From: Candidatus Omnitrophota bacterium | Lineage (GTDB): Bacteria > Omnitrophota > Gorgyraeia > Gygaellales > Profunditerraquicolaceae | Length of the DNA: 64,000 bases | NCBI GenBank assembly: GCA_049517335.1 | Contig: JBEKSD010000002.1 | Location: 1-64,000 of the forward strand | Reading direction: 5' to 3' | Shown here: one piece after another, positions 38,105-43,391 of the stretch | How positions within the stretch are numbered: position 1 is the stretch's first letter | Layout: each line of letters opens with the position of its first letter | The notes under the pieces: model-generated | Seen by the model: only the letters and a program-made list of their open reading frames with translations | The model's database searches: none | Told to the model about the DNA's origin: nothing | Position numbers and translations under genes: made by a program

Positions 38105-39036
38105 CGGAATTAATGTTGGAAAAATGGTCAGGGCAAGTTGCTACTGTGGTAATCGGCGCTACAAAAGAAGAAGGCGGGACCCGGGCGCATTCGGTCAGGG
38201 TAGGGGGGCAAAAAAGTTTACCGTTCTTATTTGCCGAAGGAGACATACCAAATAAACCGGTGATTGCTTTTGAAATCTGGGATGCCCAGCCCCTAGACTG
38301 GCCTGAACAGCTAGTTAAAGAATATGGCGACGTTTTGAAAGACCCTTTCTTATGGGCGCAGAAATGCGTAAAGGATTTTAAGGCTAGAGTTTTATGCGTG
38401 CGCCTTCAGGCTACGCACCCTGATTTCGCTAATAAAGATGCACCGGATGAGGCAAAATTCATATCAATGCTGCTTAAAAAAGTTGATGTGCCTCTTATTA
38501 TTTTGGGATGTGGCGATGACGTAAAGGATAACCAGATTTTCCCCGCAGCCAGCGAAGCAGCAAGGGGAGAACGCTGCCTGATAGGAAACGCTGTACAGGA
38601 TAATTATAAAACCTTAACCGCTGCCGTACTTGCCGATGGCCACAACATCATTGCCGAGTCGCCTATTGACATCAATATAGCAAAACAGCTGAATATTCTG
38701 ATTTCAGATATGGGGTTACCACTCGAACGCATTGTCATAAACCCGACTATTGGAGCATTAGGATACGGATTAGAATACGCTTACTCTATTATGGAGAGGG
38801 CGCGTCTTGCCGCACTTTCAGGAGACAAAACGGTCGCTTCGCCTTTTATCTGTTTTGTAGGACAAGAGGCGTGGAGGGCAAAGGAAGCAAAAGATACTTT
38901 TGAACAACAGGGAATTGTCTGGGAAGTAATTACTGCAGCTGCTTTGATTCAGGCAGGAGGCGATATTTTAGTGATGCGTCATCCCAAAGCAGCTGAAGAA
39001 GTAAATAAATACATAGAAACATTATTTAAAAAATAA
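38098..39036 (+). CDS. acsD: Corrinoid Fe-S protein small (delta) subunit
   Basis: GATKEEGGTR...VGG, SPIDINIAKQLN, LGYGLEY.YS.MER.RLAAL, MRHP. Confidence 0.95.
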   Translation: MVAELMLEKWSGQVATVVIGATKEEGGTRAHSVRVGGQKSLPFLFAEGDIPNKPVIAFEIWDAQPLDWPEQLVKEYGDVLKDPFLWAQKCVKDFKARVLCVRLQATHPDFANKDAPDEAKFISMLLKKVDVPLIILGCGDDVKDNQIFPAASEAARGERCLIGNAVQDNYKTLTAAVLADGHNIIAESPIDINIAKQLNILISDMGLPLERIVINPTIGALGYGLEYAYSIMERARLAALSGDKTVASPFICFVGQEAWRAKEAKDTFEQQGIVWEVITAAALIQAGGDILVMRHPKAAEEVNKYIETLFKK

Positions 39037-39048
39037 AACGGAGTTAAT

Positions 39049-39837
39049 ATGTTTATAATCGGCGAACTGATAAACGGAATGTATCAGGATATTGGGTCTG
39101 CGATTAAGAATAAGGATAAGCCCGTAATACAAAAATGCGCGCTTGCTCAGGTTAATGCCGGAGCAGATTGCCTAGATGTAAACTGCGGCCCGGCTTCAAG
39201 ACAGCCGGTATCTGATATGCCTTGGCTTGTTGAAACGATACAGGAAGTAACGGATAAGCCCTTGAGCCTCGATTCCAGCAAACCTCAGATTATTCAGGCC
39301 GGATTAAAAGTTATAAAAAATAAAGTTGTCATCAATTCAACCACTGCGGATCCGGAAAAATTGGAAATTTTAGTGCCGCTTGCCAGACAATACAACGCTA
39401 AGCTGATAGGCCTGACTATAAGCGCAAAAGGGATACCACAGAATAAAGACCAACGCCTTGAGCTGGCGGCTGCGATAGTTGCACATTGTTCGGATGCGGG
39501 CTTTCCTATTGAAGATTTATATCTTGACCCGATAGTTATGCCGGTAAATGTAGCGCAGGCGCAAATAAAGGATATTTTAGAGTCCATCCGCGAATTTAAA
39601 ATTATATCCGAACCCAGCCCCAGGACAATCGTAGGATTAAGTAATGTTTCACAGGGCACGGGGCAGAGGAATCTAATTAATAGGACATTTTTGACAATGG
39701 CAGCCGGTTTTGGCCTGGACGCCGCCATACTTGACCCGTTGGATAATAAACTTATGGACGCCCTGATAACCACAGAGCTAATTCTGAATAAAAACATTTA
39801 TTGCGATTCTTATTTAACCGCCTATAGAAAAAAATGA
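39049..39837 (+). CDS. acsE: Methyl-THF:corrinoid Fe-S protein methyltransferase
   Basis: IIGE.INGM, LDVN.G, INST, DP...P, GLSNVSQ, GLDAAI.DP. Confidence 0.93.
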   Translation: MFIIGELINGMYQDIGSAIKNKDKPVIQKCALAQVNAGADCLDVNCGPASRQPVSDMPWLVETIQEVTDKPLSLDSSKPQIIQAGLKVIKNKVVINSTTADPEKLEILVPLARQYNAKLIGLTISAKGIPQNKDQRLELAAAIVAHCSDAGFPIEDLYLDPIVMPVNVAQAQIKDILESIREFKIISEPSPRTIVGLSNVSQGTGQRNLINRTFLTMAAGFGLDAAILDPLDNKLMDALITTELILNKNIYCDSYLTAYRKK

Positions 39838-40208
39838 AAAAATTTTCTTACGGTTTTTTTGAAAGTTTAAGAGTTGCCTTCAAGGGCATTATTTATCTCT
39901 TCCTTTACCACCGCAATATGCGTATTATATTCATGCTCGGGGCTTGCGCTTTTCTCTTCGGTATTTATTTTAAGCTAGAGGGAATCCAGATGGTAACGCT
40001 TTGCATCACCATAACCTTAGTTTTTATGGCTGAAATTTTTAATACTGCAATTGAGATACTGATGAATATGCTCACTTCAGAATACCACCTGCGCATAAAG
40101 TTGGTTAAAGATATTGCTGCGGGCGTGGTAATATTGGCCTGCTTAAATGCCCTCGCAGTTGGTTATATACTTTTTTACCGTAGTATAATTTATTTGACAA
40201 AAAGCTGA
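39834..40208 (+). CDS. dgkA: Diacylglycerol/undecaprenol kinase family protein
   Basis: AFKGI....RN, E..NTAIE, KDIAAG.V. Confidence 0.88.
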   Translation: MKKFSYGFFESLRVAFKGIIYLFLYHRNMRIIFMLGACAFLFGIYFKLEGIQMVTLCITITLVFMAEIFNTAIEILMNMLTSEYHLRIKLVKDIAAGVVILACLNALAVGYILFYRSIIYLTKS

Positions 40209-40222
40209 CAAAAGGGTATCCT
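40194..40222 (+). promoter_or_regulatory. Putative sigma70 promoter of tRNA-Met
   Basis: TTGACA (40194-40199), 17 nt, TATCCT. Confidence 0.6.
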
Positions 40223-40239
40223 TTAAAAAATAGATTTTT

Positions 40240-40316
40240 GGCGGAGTAGCTCAGCCTGATAGAGCACGCGGCTCATACCCGCTTGGTCGGTGGTTTAAAT
40301 CCACTCTCCGCCACCA
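40240..40316 (+). tRNA. tRNA-Met (CAT), elongator type, CCA encoded; A19/T56 variant
   Basis: GGCGGAG/CTCCGCC acceptor stem with G1-C72 paired, CTCATAC anticodon loop, GGTGG-TTTAAAT-CCACT T arm. Confidence 0.88.
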
Positions 40317-40332
40317 GTTATTTAGCTTCTTC

Positions 40333-40361
40333 TTGACAAACAGGATTTGTAACGGTATACT
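40333..40361 (+). promoter_or_regulatory. Near-consensus sigma70 promoter
   Basis: TTGACA (40333-40338), 17 nt, TATACT (40356-40361). Confidence 0.8.
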
Positions 40362-40385
40362 ATATTTAAACACGAGGAGGAAAAT

Positions 40386-40424
40386 ATGTGCAAAACTTGT
40401 GGATGCAGGAAGAAACCAAAATAA
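40386..40424 (+). CDS. 12-aa Cys-rich micropeptide MCKTCGCRKKPK (HypB-type CxxCGC metal-binding motif)
   Basis: GAGGAGG SD 5 nt before ATG TGC AAA ACT TGT GGA TGC AGG AAG AAA CCA AAA TAA, with its own promoter and a downstream hairpin. Confidence 0.65.
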   Translation: MCKTCGCRKKPK

Positions 40425-40466
40425 CAGTTTTTGACGGTTGATTAAACAGCTAGATACATATTTTCA

Positions 40467-40499
40467 TAAAAGGCAACTCATTCTTTGGGTTGCCTTTTA
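40467..40499 (+). terminator. Putative intrinsic terminator after the micropeptide gene
   Basis: TAAAAGGCAACTCA-TTCTT-TGGGTTGCCTTTTA. Confidence 0.7.
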
Positions 40500-40513
40500 G
40501 CTATCTCAATACA

Positions 40514-41473
40514 ATGCTAAATAAAGTCAAGAATACAATTGAAAAATACGGTTTGATCCGGAAAGGCGACAAAATTCTCGTTGGGGTTTCCGGCGGCCCT
40601 GATTCCGTAGCGTTGTTATATATTTTAAATACCTTAAGGAAAAAAGGCGCATTCCATTTGCACATCGCACACCTTGACCATATGTTAAGAAAAAACTCGA
40701 CTAAAGACGCCGAATTCGTTAAGAAGCTTTCCGTTAACCTTAAAATCCCTTTACGGACTGGGCGCATCAATGTAAAAAAATTAGCAAAAAATCAGTCAAT
40801 TGAAGAGGCCGGCCGCAATGCCCGTCTTGACTTCTTCTTTAAAACTGCCGAGAAAATTAAAGCGGATAAAATTGCCCTTGCGCATAACCTTGAAGATCAG
40901 GCGGAAACCGTCTTAATGCGCATATTGCGGGGGACAGGCCTTTATGGATTGTCCGGAATTTCGGCAAAAAGAAAAATCCGCGGCTATGAGATCATCCGCC
41001 CCCTTATTGAAACGAAAAGGAGCGAAATTGAGTCATATTTAAAAAAAAATCGGATCAAATCGCGGCTTGACCGATCAAACTTTGAAGATATCTATTTTCG
41101 TAACAGAATCAGGAATAAACTGATCCCGCTCTTGGAAAAAAATTACAGCCCGAATATAAAAGAATTACTTGCTAATCTTGCCGTGAATTCCGGCTCGGAT
41201 TACCAGTTCCTTGAACATTTGGCGGCTAAGGCAATAAAGAAAACAACAACAAAATTTAATTTAAAGGCTCTCAGCCAACTTCACATTTCAATGCAGCGGC
41301 TACTTTTCAGAAGAGCGATAGCATGCCTACAGGGTGATACCCGCCGGATCACCTTTAGGCATATAAATGAAATTGAAGATTTGGTTTTAAACCGGCCGAA
41401 AAATTCAATTGTTGACCTGCCTAAAGGTATATCAGTAATAAAGAAAAAATCCCTCGTTTTCTACCGAAGATAA
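40514..41473 (+). CDS. tilS: tRNA(Ile2) lysidine synthetase
   Basis: VSGGPDS, HLDH.LR, E..GR.AR, AH...DQAET, IRPL, RN.IR. ATG at 40514. Confidence 0.95.
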   Translation: MLNKVKNTIEKYGLIRKGDKILVGVSGGPDSVALLYILNTLRKKGAFHLHIAHLDHMLRKNSTKDAEFVKKLSVNLKIPLRTGRINVKKLAKNQSIEEAGRNARLDFFFKTAEKIKADKIALAHNLEDQAETVLMRILRGTGLYGLSGISAKRKIRGYEIIRPLIETKRSEIESYLKKNRIKSRLDRSNFEDIYFRNRIRNKLIPLLEKNYSPNIKELLANLAVNSGSDYQFLEHLAAKAIKKTTTKFNLKALSQLHISMQRLLFRRAIACLQGDTRRITFRHINEIEDLVLNRPKNSIVDLPKGISVIKKKSLVFYRR

Positions 41474-41485
41474 TTTCAATAATAC

Positions 41486-41514
41486 TTGATTTTTAAGTCG
41501 GTTAAAGATATAAT
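41486..41514 (+). promoter_or_regulatory. Putative sigma70 promoter of ftsH
   Basis: TTGATT, 17 nt, TATAAT. Confidence 0.65.
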
Positions 41515-41540
41515 AAAAGTCTAAAAAGGGGAATGTAAAA

Positions 41541-43391
41541 ATGTCAAACCATAATCAGAAGTCCAAGAAAAACAATATACTTAAGCGAATTCCTTTCGGT
41601 TGGATATTCGTTATCATCATTTTTGTGATGTTGATAAATTCCTTTAATATTCCCGTAAACGGAGTGCCGAAGGAAATAAGTTACAGTGAATTTTACCGAA
41701 CCTTAAAAGACAGCCCCGATAGGATTAAGTCTTTGACAAAAACCGAGAGTATCCTGCAGGGCGAATACAACGATAAGTCCAAGTTCTTTGTGAATATTCC
41801 CGATAACGACACTGAGTTGTTAAATTTAATCCGCCAAAATGTGAGAAATTTTGAGGTAAAGCCGGCGCGAACATTCTGGGTTTCGCTCCTTTTTAATGTC
41901 GGTCCAATCTTACTCTTGATATTTTTCTGGTGGATGATGGCTGCCCGGGGAGAACAGCTGGGCAACCGAGTTATGGCTTTTGGGAAAGTCAGACCTAAAG
42001 TTCAGGGAGAAAAAGAAAAGACCACCTTTAATGACGTCGCCGGAGTAGATGAAGCCAAAGAAGAATTAAAAGAAGTAATTGAATTTTTAAAAGACCCTAA
42101 AAAATTCCAGAAATTAGGCGGTAAAATACCCAAAGGCGTCTTATTGGTGGGCCCACCTGGCTGCGGGAAGACTTTAATCGCAAGGGCCGTGGCAGGAGAG
42201 GCGGGTGTGCCGTTTTTCTCCATAAGCGGCTCGGACTTCGTAGAGATGTTTGTGGGAGTCGGCGCCAGCCGCGTGCGCGACCTCTTTGAACAGGGAAGGC
42301 GCGCAGGAAAAGTTTCCGGTAAGGGCGCAATAATTTTTATTGATGAGATTGACGCAGTAGGGCGCCTACGGTTTGCAGGCATCGGCGGAGGTCATGACGA
42401 ACGGGAACAAACATTAAACGCGCTTCTAGTTGAAATGGACGGGTTTGACTCCCAGCAGGGGCTGATTTTAATTGCCGCGACCAACAGACCGGATACTTTG
42501 GACCCCGCGCTTCTTCGTCCGGGCAGGTTTGACAGAAACATCATTGTTAATTTACCTGATATAAGGGGAAGGGAAGAAATTCTGAAAGTCCATACCCGCA
42601 AGATTAAACTTGCCGAGGGAGTGGATCTTAAGTCCATTGCCGCTTCAACCCCCGGCTTTTCCGGTGCAGACCTGGCAAACCTCTGTAATGAGGCGGCCCT
42701 GCTTGCCGCCCGTCACAGTAAAGAAGCGGTGGAAATGATTGAATTTGAGAAATCGGTTGAAAGAGTGCTGATGGGACCTGAAAAAAAGAGCCACATTATG
42801 TCTAAGAAAGAAAAGGAAATAACCGCGCTGCATGAATCGGGACACGCCTTAATGTCCCTTTTATTGCCCGAAGTAAACCCGGTAAAGAAAGTTTCCATAA
42901 TCCCTCGCGGCTTAGCCGGCGGCTACACTTTTACTCCTCCGCTTGAAGACCGGCATTACTGGACTAAACGCGAGCTAATTTCAGAAATTGCCATGATGCT
43001 CGGCGGCAGGGCATCGGAAGAAATTAATTTGAATGATGTTACTACGGGCGCCCAGAATGACTTGGAGATGGCCACCGGTATGGCGCGTAGAATGGTTACC
43101 CAGTTCGGCATGTCCGAAAAATTAGGCCATATTACCCTGGGCCGTAGGGAAGGTCTTGTATTTTTGGGCCGCGATATCATGGAAGAGAAGAATTACAGCG
43201 AGCAAACAGCCCGTATTATAGATGAAGAAGTAAAAAGTATAATAGATGAAGCGTATTTAAAAGCAAAGAGTTTGCTGCAACAGAATTTAGATAAGCTAAA
43301 AATGCTTTCAAGCGCTTTAATAGAAAAAGAGGTTTTAAGCGGAGACGAAGTTAAAAAACTACTTGGTATTGAGAAAGCGGACCTTACCTAA
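41541..43391 (+). CDS. ftsH: ATP-dependent zinc metalloprotease FtsH
   Basis: Two TM helices, [26 protein letters not shown]. Confidence 0.98.

Follow-up and report, generated by a model that had tools for sequence, protein, structure and literature searches.

We analysed the first 64,000 nt of a Candidatus Omnitrophota contig (JBEKSD010000002.1; this whole stretch is called the window), in which the interval between a tRNA gene with anticodon CAT and the tilS gene holds a free-standing micro-gene of only 12 codons. Its open reading frame (ORF), MCKTCGCRKKPK, is preceded by a sigma-70 type promoter and a Shine-Dalgarno (SD) sequence and is followed by a terminator-like hairpin (Table 1). A first-pass annotation of this DNA had proposed the promoter, the SD sequence, the 12 codons, the TAA, and the 14-bp hairpin, and each was found at the position it had given. 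The promoter match is 11/12, making it the top promoter-like site across 39000-42000. The 14-bp stem is present in the RNAfold minimum-energy structure, and folding of the 156-nt region gave z = -4.1, a value equalled by 0 of 200 shuffles. Because only 4 T follow the stem, a simple terminator scan left the hairpin unflagged. On this locus, Rfam recognised the tRNA alone and no other RNA family.

The encoded peptide begins MCKTCGC (40386-40406), which places CxxCGC directly after the initiator Met. This is the exact arrangement found in HypB, and the first-pass annotation was right on this point as well. The codon pattern ATG-TGY-N6-TGY-GGN-TGY has one match in the window, and 0 of 100 shuffles contained any match. 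Across the whole genome (1.45 Mb, 92% complete), the M-C-x-x-C-G-C codon pattern again gave this single match.

Table 1. Features of the micro-gene locus, with window coordinates, and loci of the longer and viral relatives
Feature	Position	Strand	Details
-35/-10 promoter, sigma-70 type	40333..40361	+	TTGACA 40333-40338, 17-nt spacer, TATACT 40356-40361
Shine-Dalgarno sequence GAGGAGG	40374..40380	+	5 nt from the ATG at 40386
12-codon gene plus TAA	40386..40424	+	MCKTCGCRKKPK; stop codon 40422-40424
Terminator-like hairpin	40468..40498	+	A-tract, GGCAAC...GTTGCC stem (14 bp), T-tract
tRNA, anticodon CAT	40240..40316	+	ARAGORN; Rfam tRNA 59 bits; upstream edge of the apparent inserted cassette
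tilS, PP-loop and TilS substrate-binding domains	40514..41473	+	PF01171 E = 3.5e-56, PF09179 E = 1.1e-05; outside the unit
Upstream genes (Pfam)			RACo, CooC/MinD-type ATPase, CdhD, AcsE-like protein, diacylglycerol kinase
Downstream genes (Pfam)			tilS, ftsH, pterin-binding protein, cdaA
Family of 34-36 aa	near position 1501 in each		L319, L323, L326, L327, L329, L330, L331
Family of 56-77 aa			L045, L131, L134, L050, L055, L099, L104, L175, L177-L179, L208, L224, L234
Viral loci			L241-L298; L166, L192, L209

Family scans across relatives showed the micro-gene to be conserved and bore out that it stands alone, with a promoter, an SD sequence, and a terminator of its own. In an order-wide scan of 234 genomes, we fixed the first nine codons (M-C-x-x-C-G-C-x-K) and set no condition on length, SD sequence, or tail. 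Matches were obtained in 10 of the 234 genomes, spread over 7 genera, and the reversed control pattern gave 0. The ORFs matched are all 12-19 aa long, have a GGAGG-type SD sequence upstream, and end in tails composed of K, R, P, and A only; examples are MCKTCGCKKKPK, MCKSCGCRKPKPK, MCATCGCRKPKPK, and MCKSCGCKKKPKPK. When a sample of the window's family was scanned without the [KR]K condition, 10/121 genomes carried the gene, and in a DPANN class sample a family member was present in 4/301 genomes (reversed control, 0/301).

A broader scan of genome contigs, again free of SD, length, and tail conditions, gave 23 family-like loci among the 119 listed by our own count; the non-family loci listed had no SD sequence and were of arbitrary length. 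The carriers among the matches listed included Candidatus Omnitrophota, Pacearchaeota and Woesearchaeota (DPANN), and one member of the Paceibacterota (candidate phyla radiation, CPR). For metagenome contigs, where an SD sequence was required, we counted about 58 of 77 loci as family-like, encoding 9-19 aa with basic tails. At some DPANN-type loci (L067 and metagenome L210/L211), the archaeal markers aRF1, S3Ae, and S13/S15-N stand beside the ORF. No Cys-rich short ORF was found at the other tRNA(CAT) loci in 19 relatives.

For a pooled set we retained ORFs of 9-19 aa with the pattern M-C-x-x-C-G-C-[KR]-K, an SD sequence, and K, R, or P at 70% or more of the tail positions. Once duplicates were discarded, 70 members in unique contexts were left; they come from metagenomes, from Omnitrophota (the window's phylum), from DPANN archaea, and from one CPR bacterium, and their lengths peak at 12-15 aa. 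At positions 3 and 4, which the search had left free, K occurs in 34/70 members and T or S in 52/70, respectively. Tail residues are K, R, or P in 310 of 324 cases, as may be expected of a set filtered for such tails. The tail of the family is not always basic, since one DPANN locus (L240, G335:C12) has an SD-preceded 16-aa ORF, MCGTCGCGKESDEGGQ, that keeps the N terminus and has an acidic tail. The family thus delineated comprises previously unannotated micro-proteins of 9-22 aa together with Cys-rich relatives of 23-36 aa; what defines it is a chain that opens with Met-Cys-x-x-Cys-Gly-Cys and continues into a Lys/Arg/Pro tail.

The first-pass annotation had suggested looking for synonymous variation in relatives, and this is abundant: the pooled set contains 68 distinct ORF DNAs and 52 peptides. 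The 12-aa type alone is encoded by ten different DNAs, among which the differences in codons not forced by the pattern fall 93 times at position 3, 9 times at position 2, and 0 times at position 1. Identity within the 12-aa group is 0.86 over the ORF versus 0.30 in both flanks, a contrast that is independent of how the groups were called. In addition, an independent-gene test found the promoter, SD sequence, stop codon, and terminator all present and conserved with the ORF. Judged from sequence comparison, we conclude that the 12 codons make up a real protein-coding gene with transcription of its own and not a chance ORF.

The position of the motif relative to the start codon was probed by inserting one codon between the ATG and the first Cys codon of the search pattern. 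In the order, this shifted register matched in 1/234 genomes (a 43-aa ORF without an SD sequence) versus 10/234 for the direct register. On viral contigs, the shifted register gave 13 matches, 0 of them family-like, and the direct register gave 58 loci, 36 of which belong to four recurrent short-ORF families. Such a constraint on register would fit a need for a free N-terminal alpha-amine.

We also considered whether the ORF might be the truncated remnant of a longer protein, which the first-pass annotation had named as the case that would speak against its proposal. This candidate was rejected, since 0 of 23 matches in the 121 sampled genomes of the family start an enzyme-size protein.

The same TTGACA-17-TATACT pair recurs upstream of family members at 7 loci. 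At loci of the Pro/Lys-tail (PK) type, a promoter matching at least 10/12 positions and ending 14-29 nt before the ATG was present in 14/33 cases, compared to 0/27 controls. Up to 120 nt downstream of the ORF, we found a terminator-like hairpin at 32/67 loci, mainly those of the bacterial type, compared to 12/57 in windows 400 nt further on and 27/67 on the reverse complement; the latter count is what A-tract/T-tract hairpins would lead one to expect.

Ten loci orthologous to that of the window (in G000, G020, and eight metagenome contigs) have the SD sequence, the ORF, and the hairpin in common. The outer stem AAGGCAAC/GTTGCCTT of this hairpin does not vary among them, and covariation is seen in its inner pairs; RNAalifold returned only the long helix of the terminator hairpin and a 3-bp stem within the ORF. 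In 9 of the 10, tilS-ftsH lies downstream, while L235 has different neighbours; one has a tRNA 3' end upstream. The layout of promoter, short ORF, hairpin, and a tilS start 10-30 nt further on is kept in at least nine loci. In G029, G033, and G038, which belong to three further families of the order, the same tRNA(CAT) is followed directly by tilS, with neither mini-ORF nor hairpin. It follows, on this comparative evidence, that the cassette of the window's lineage, a promoter-to-terminator unit of ~170 bp, is an insertion into an older tRNA(CAT)-tilS junction. The downstream edge of the cassette in the window is tilS, whose ATG is at 40514.

We observed tRNA(CAT) directly 5' of tilS in several families of the order (the window, L012, L015, and L016). 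The substrate of TilS is tRNA-Ile2, which has the anticodon CAU. The tRNA(CAT) of the window, labelled tRNA-Met, may accordingly be this TilS substrate, encoded beside its enzyme.

Window DNA was detected in peat metagenomes. A 263-nt contig from another peat metagenome (run X3) is 88% identical to the mini-ORF (40375-40424; 6 differences in 50 nt), has flanks different from those of the window, and still contains a similar -10 region. This contig is from a related strain or species that has the cassette in another context. In RNA run X19, a contig spans the tRNA only (40236-40317) with flanks unlike those of the window, which speaks neither for nor against transcription of the ORF.

Across loci, the genes following the micro-gene vary widely and include tilS, rubrerythrin, nitroreductase, UbiA, ArgD, a histidine kinase, RuBisCO, NrdD, DUF5654, and endolysin genes. 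Elsewhere, the mini-ORF stands between an FMN reductase gene and a nitroreductase-rubrerythrin pair (L029, L174; L193 retains the upstream FMN reductase), before rubrerythrin-peroxiredoxin (L024), after MsrB/MsrA (L033), within an arg operon, and beside a histidine kinase gene. In DPANN archaea, it lies 3' of NifU/IscU at four loci (L147, L202, L203, and L213); directly 5' of RuBisCO at four more, three of which have CysRS upstream and the fourth no upstream DNA; between NrdR and NrdD at two; and before a DUF5654 or a DUF7343/MarR-like gene. The DPANN mini-ORFs often abut or overlap the next start. At L202 (471-2009), the NifU/IscU gene directly upstream of the mini-ORF is split by a LAGLIDADG (intein-type) domain. 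A test of the micro-gene as a precursor of a ribosomally synthesised and post-translationally modified peptide revealed no recurrent modifying enzyme among the neighbours, only isolated radical-SAM/SPASM genes (L049, L161, and L163).

Longer proteins share the N terminus. In 7/121 genomes of the window's family, we found Cys-rich, SD-preceded proteins of 34-36 aa that start MCxxCGC, such as MCQTCGCTPCKKCGKPVKNGVCSGCGKKSDECTCKK; these had no Pfam or NCBIfam match at threshold, and ESM Atlas returned no usable match for a 36-aa relative. A separate family of 56-77 aa starts MC[YLI]xCGC[KR]K, mostly continues with P.(D)DHG and NIT-like residues, and occurs in Chloroflexia, Bdellovibrionales-labelled, CPR, and other metagenome-assembled genomes; its members of 74-77 aa end in His/Asp-rich runs. 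For this family and for proteins of 331-485 aa with the same N terminus, Pfam and NCBIfam were uninformative and the homologues, including those of a 74-aa relative, are all annotated "hypothetical". No metal-specific signal was apparent among the neighbours of these longer proteins.

On viral contigs, a 21-mer, MCATCGC[KR]KSKPKPSKPKGG[KR], is present at 15 loci and, where annotation exists, lies after a primase gene, with an endolysin-type gene starting 2 nt further on. Two more recurrent ORFs encode a 23-mer that has 9 Cys (10 loci) and a 52-mer (9 loci), and 9-mers of the form MCK[KR]CGC[KR]K are found upstream of head-scaffolding genes. Relatives with the same N terminus thus carry extra candidate metal ligands: the 34-36 aa proteins and the phage 23-mer in their many Cys, and the 74-77 aa proteins in their His/Asp-rich runs.

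No Pfam or NCBIfam model covers the micro-gene family or its longer relatives. Searches with characteristic 6-letter peptide strings retrieved no relevant paper from the searchable literature, from which subscription journals and preprint supplements are excluded, and keyword searches, with subscription journals and bioRxiv supplements likewise outside their scope, retrieved no description of such a gene.

Taking the motif and its register into account, we consider it somewhat more probable than its negation, at roughly 55%, that the peptide constitutes a free-standing HypB-type metal site, in which the N-terminal amine and three thiolates would act as ligands on a polycationic tail. Methionine aminopeptidase removes Met when it precedes a small second residue such as Cys. 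The enzyme would therefore be expected to cut off Met1 of the micro-protein, and the alpha-amine of the exposed Cys could then join the three thiolates in a four-ligand site as in HypB, whose site takes Zn(II) as well. The Lys/Arg/Pro tail would keep the peptide soluble and probably docks it on polyanions, which might be nucleic acid, polyphosphate, acidic lipid, or an acidic partner protein. The peptide would then serve as a minimal cytoplasmic buffer, chaperone, or scavenger for a metal that could be Ni, Zn, Cu, Fe, or Fe-S.

According to a report on this motif (PMC12284835), the CxxCGC sequence of E. coli HypB, given there as CTTCGC, has picomolar affinity for Ni(II), which it holds in square-planar geometry through the N-terminal amine and three thiolates; a short peptide modelled on the motif binds both Ni(II) and Zn(II). 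The ligand layout after Met1 (Cys2, Cys5, Gly6, and Cys7) is identical in the micro-protein, and the Thr or Ser at position 4 of 52/70 members resembles the E. coli CTTCGC as written in that report. The micro-gene lacks the disordered linker and the GTPase domain of HypB as well as any hyp gene context, and a stop codon follows its Lys/Arg/Pro tail. A test for a SIMIBI-class GTPase domain was negative, as the ORF stops after 12 codons and the next gene is tilS, and a genome-wide search with PF02492 gave only P-loop matches of ~20 bits. The sole library model touched by any family member is HypB_prefix_1 (NCBIfam NF053667), which scored below threshold with a 20-aa and a 22-aa member (15.8 and 14 bits; model positions 1-17; cut-off 30). 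Having no linker, GTPase domain, or hyp context, the peptide is not a HypB, though it would resemble the tip of HypB in its working.

The micro-proteins are also comparable to bacterial metallothioneins and other small Cys-rich proteins in being small, Cys-based, and presumably engaged in metal-thiolate chemistry, and the Cys density of the 23-aa phage relatives and the 34-36 aa Omnitrophota relatives is metallothionein-like. Unlike metallothioneins, the micro-gene product has three Cys and one predicted mononuclear site that would use the alpha-amine, and, with 12 aa, it falls well short in length of the metallothioneins and zinc-finger micro-proteins described so far. The C(P)XCG micro-proteins of Haloferax are reportedly another group of small Cys-rich metal-binding proteins.

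Several points weigh against a HypB-type metal site. Metal binding is predicted from the motif, and the HypB_prefix_1 scores lie under the cut-off. The groups used to call codon differences were set by the peptide pattern, so that the contrast between synonymous and non-synonymous changes is partly circular, and the 70-member set had been preselected for an SD sequence and a basic tail. The gene is rare (~4% of the order and ~1% of the DPANN sample) and therefore dispensable. The single RNA run examined reaches the tRNA only. No partner gene is conserved, and a neighbourhood of Ni genes is confined to the window's lineage; 5/24 carriers (4 DPANN and 1 CPR), whose completeness is not established, had no match to [NiFe]-hydrogenase or acetyl-CoA synthase (ACS). 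The recurrent redox, oxidative-stress, and Fe-S neighbours would suit a thiol or Fe-S role equally well.

The case for nickel in particular did not hold up as well as the motif itself. The first-pass annotation had noted a nearby cluster with larB, fmdE, cooC, and acsCDE; of this cluster, which ends 549 nt before the ATG, we verified the genes for RACo, CdhD, a CooC/MinD-type ATPase, and an AcsE-like protein. The acs/cooC neighbourhood is confined to the closest orthologues (G000, L162, and L183), and neighbours otherwise change from locus to locus; a functional tie to this cluster is not supported. ACS is present in 15/15 Omnitrophota carriers, yet it is also present in 216/234 genomes of the order; being near-universal there, its co-occurrence is uninformative. 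Similarly, HypB (TIGR00073) exceeded the cut-off in 0/24 carriers and 0/61 relatives, and because it is missing from both alike, no complementarity between HypB and the micro-gene can be read from these counts. Matches to PF00374, the [NiFe]-hydrogenase large-subunit family, were found in 19/24 carriers, including 15/15 Omnitrophota carriers tested, despite the 0/61 for TIGR00073 in the order sample. A nickel-specific role finds no support, given the absence of a conserved Ni-gene neighbour and the carriers without Ni enzyme matches. Of the first-pass reading, then, the real gene and the HypB-type motif stand, and the nickel role is left unsupported, as is the suggestion of a tilS leader that is considered below.

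A broader proposal can be put forward tentatively: these may be the smallest known metallochaperone genes, cross-domain and partly phage-borne, encoding free-standing "nickel hook" peptides in which a polycationic tail bears the alpha-amine and Cys3, spread as ~170-bp promoter-to-terminator cassettes, and buffering Ni or other thiophilic metals with high affinity in HypB-less ultra-small cells (Omnitrophota, DPANN, and CPR) and in their viruses. We regard this as possible rather than probable.

Given the oxidative-stress and Fe-S genes that recur beside the micro-gene, a role in thiol-redox or Fe-S chemistry is a serious rival, though one we judge rather unlikely. Here the CxxC/CGC thiols would act not as a Ni/Zn site, and instead as a redox dithiol, a persulfide or Fe-S carrier, or an oxidative-stress scavenger; in the Fe-S variant, two peptides would bridge one cluster. 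Besides the FMN reductase, nitroreductase, rubrerythrin, peroxiredoxin, MsrB/MsrA, and directly upstream NifU/IscU genes already described, L032 has a flavodoxin and a metal-resistance/LTXXQ protein, Fer4 proteins are encoded at L026, L187, L031, and L189, and FeS_assembly_P is found near L067. A 69-aa protein with the same N terminus also adjoins FMN reductase and MsrA. Against this, redox and Fe-S genes are common in small anaerobe genomes, and the neighbour tally is one made without an enrichment test. Several of the contexts are orthologous and therefore represent few independent events, many loci have unrelated neighbours (tilS, the arg operon, RuBisCO, NrdD, endolysin, or head scaffold), and a dithiol or cluster site would not need the strict N-terminal register.

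The tail suggests another explanation, which we consider unlikely: the polycationic peptide could bind nucleic acid or the ribosome and neutralise charge in phage heads and very small cells, much as protamines or eL41 do, with the Cys triad providing only structural Zn or dimerisation. The almost wholly Lys/Arg/Pro tails of the filtered set are in keeping with this, as are the viral short ORFs of the same N terminus beside head-scaffold, primase, and endolysin genes, the restriction of carriers to Omnitrophota, DPANN, and one CPR genome, and the ribosomal protein genes downstream at two DPANN loci. On the other hand, patchy occurrence rules out a core ribosomal role, and the acidic-tailed DPANN member indicates that the N terminus, not the charge, is constant. 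A polycationic function would also be compatible with metal binding and not opposed to it.

It is quite unlikely, in our estimation, that the micro-gene is a regulatory leader, as the first-pass annotation had offered as an alternative. In that case, the supply of Cys-tRNA or Lys-tRNA would be sensed as the Cys/Lys-rich mini-ORF is translated, and this would govern read-through past the hairpin, leading into tilS-ftsH or, in archaea, the abutting gene. TilS uses lysine, which would suit such a sensor. The layout of promoter, short ORF, hairpin, and tilS, the DPANN ORFs that abut or overlap the next gene, and the CysRS gene upstream at three RuBisCO-linked loci are also in line with it, and the SD/AUG region of the window is able to pair with a downstream stretch. 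We rejected this SD-sequestering fold, as RNAalifold did not find it conserved in the ten orthologous loci; neither a conserved antiterminator nor any other SD-sequestering helix was present in that alignment. The cassette also precedes genes that are unrelated between loci and do not belong to the pathway of the amino acid sensed. Moreover, Gly6, the C-x-x-C-G-C spacing, and the post-Met register are invariant or strongly preferred, and a codon-counting sensor needs none of these. Finally, the tRNA-tilS junction is older than the cassette inserted into it, which shows that tilS functions without the cassette.

There is a precedent for such a leader in mycobacteria, where one preprint (bioRxiv 10.1101/834739) describes polycysteine leaderless short ORFs as cysteine-responsive attenuators. 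The micro-gene is similar in being an unannotated, Cys-rich, very short ORF at a transcript 5' end with genes downstream. Unlike the attenuators as described there, it has a strong SD sequence and is not leaderless, its Cys spacing is fixed with no run of Cys, its downstream genes have no relation to cysteine metabolism, the bacterial copies mostly end in a terminator of their own, and an alternative RNA structure conserved at the micro-gene was not found.

That the ORF arose by chance within a non-coding element (a small RNA or a promoter-terminator cassette) and encodes a functionless peptide is very improbable: Rfam gives nothing beyond the tRNA, RNA run X19 shows the tRNA only, no transcript or peptide supports the ORF, and the cassette appears mobile, yet it is the peptide and not the RNA that is conserved across bacteria, archaea, and phages, with flanks at ~30% identity, differences concentrated at third codon positions, an SD sequence in 10/10 unbiased matches, and reversed-pattern controls of 0 in 234 and 301 genomes.

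A HypB-type metal site in a free peptide is inexpensive to check because the peptide can be synthesised, and if it binds metal as the HypB-like tip predicts, it could be put to use as a minimal Ni or Zn tag or sensor of natural origin. Few conserved protein-coding genes whose biochemical activity can be predicted would be as short as these 12 codons, and the gene is invisible to all standard gene callers and protein databases. A family that spans bacteria, archaea, and viruses represents functional coding capacity hidden in the "intergenic" DNA of little-understood lineages. Should the predicted metal binding be true, a metallochaperone module could exist, and spread, as a free mobile micro-gene.

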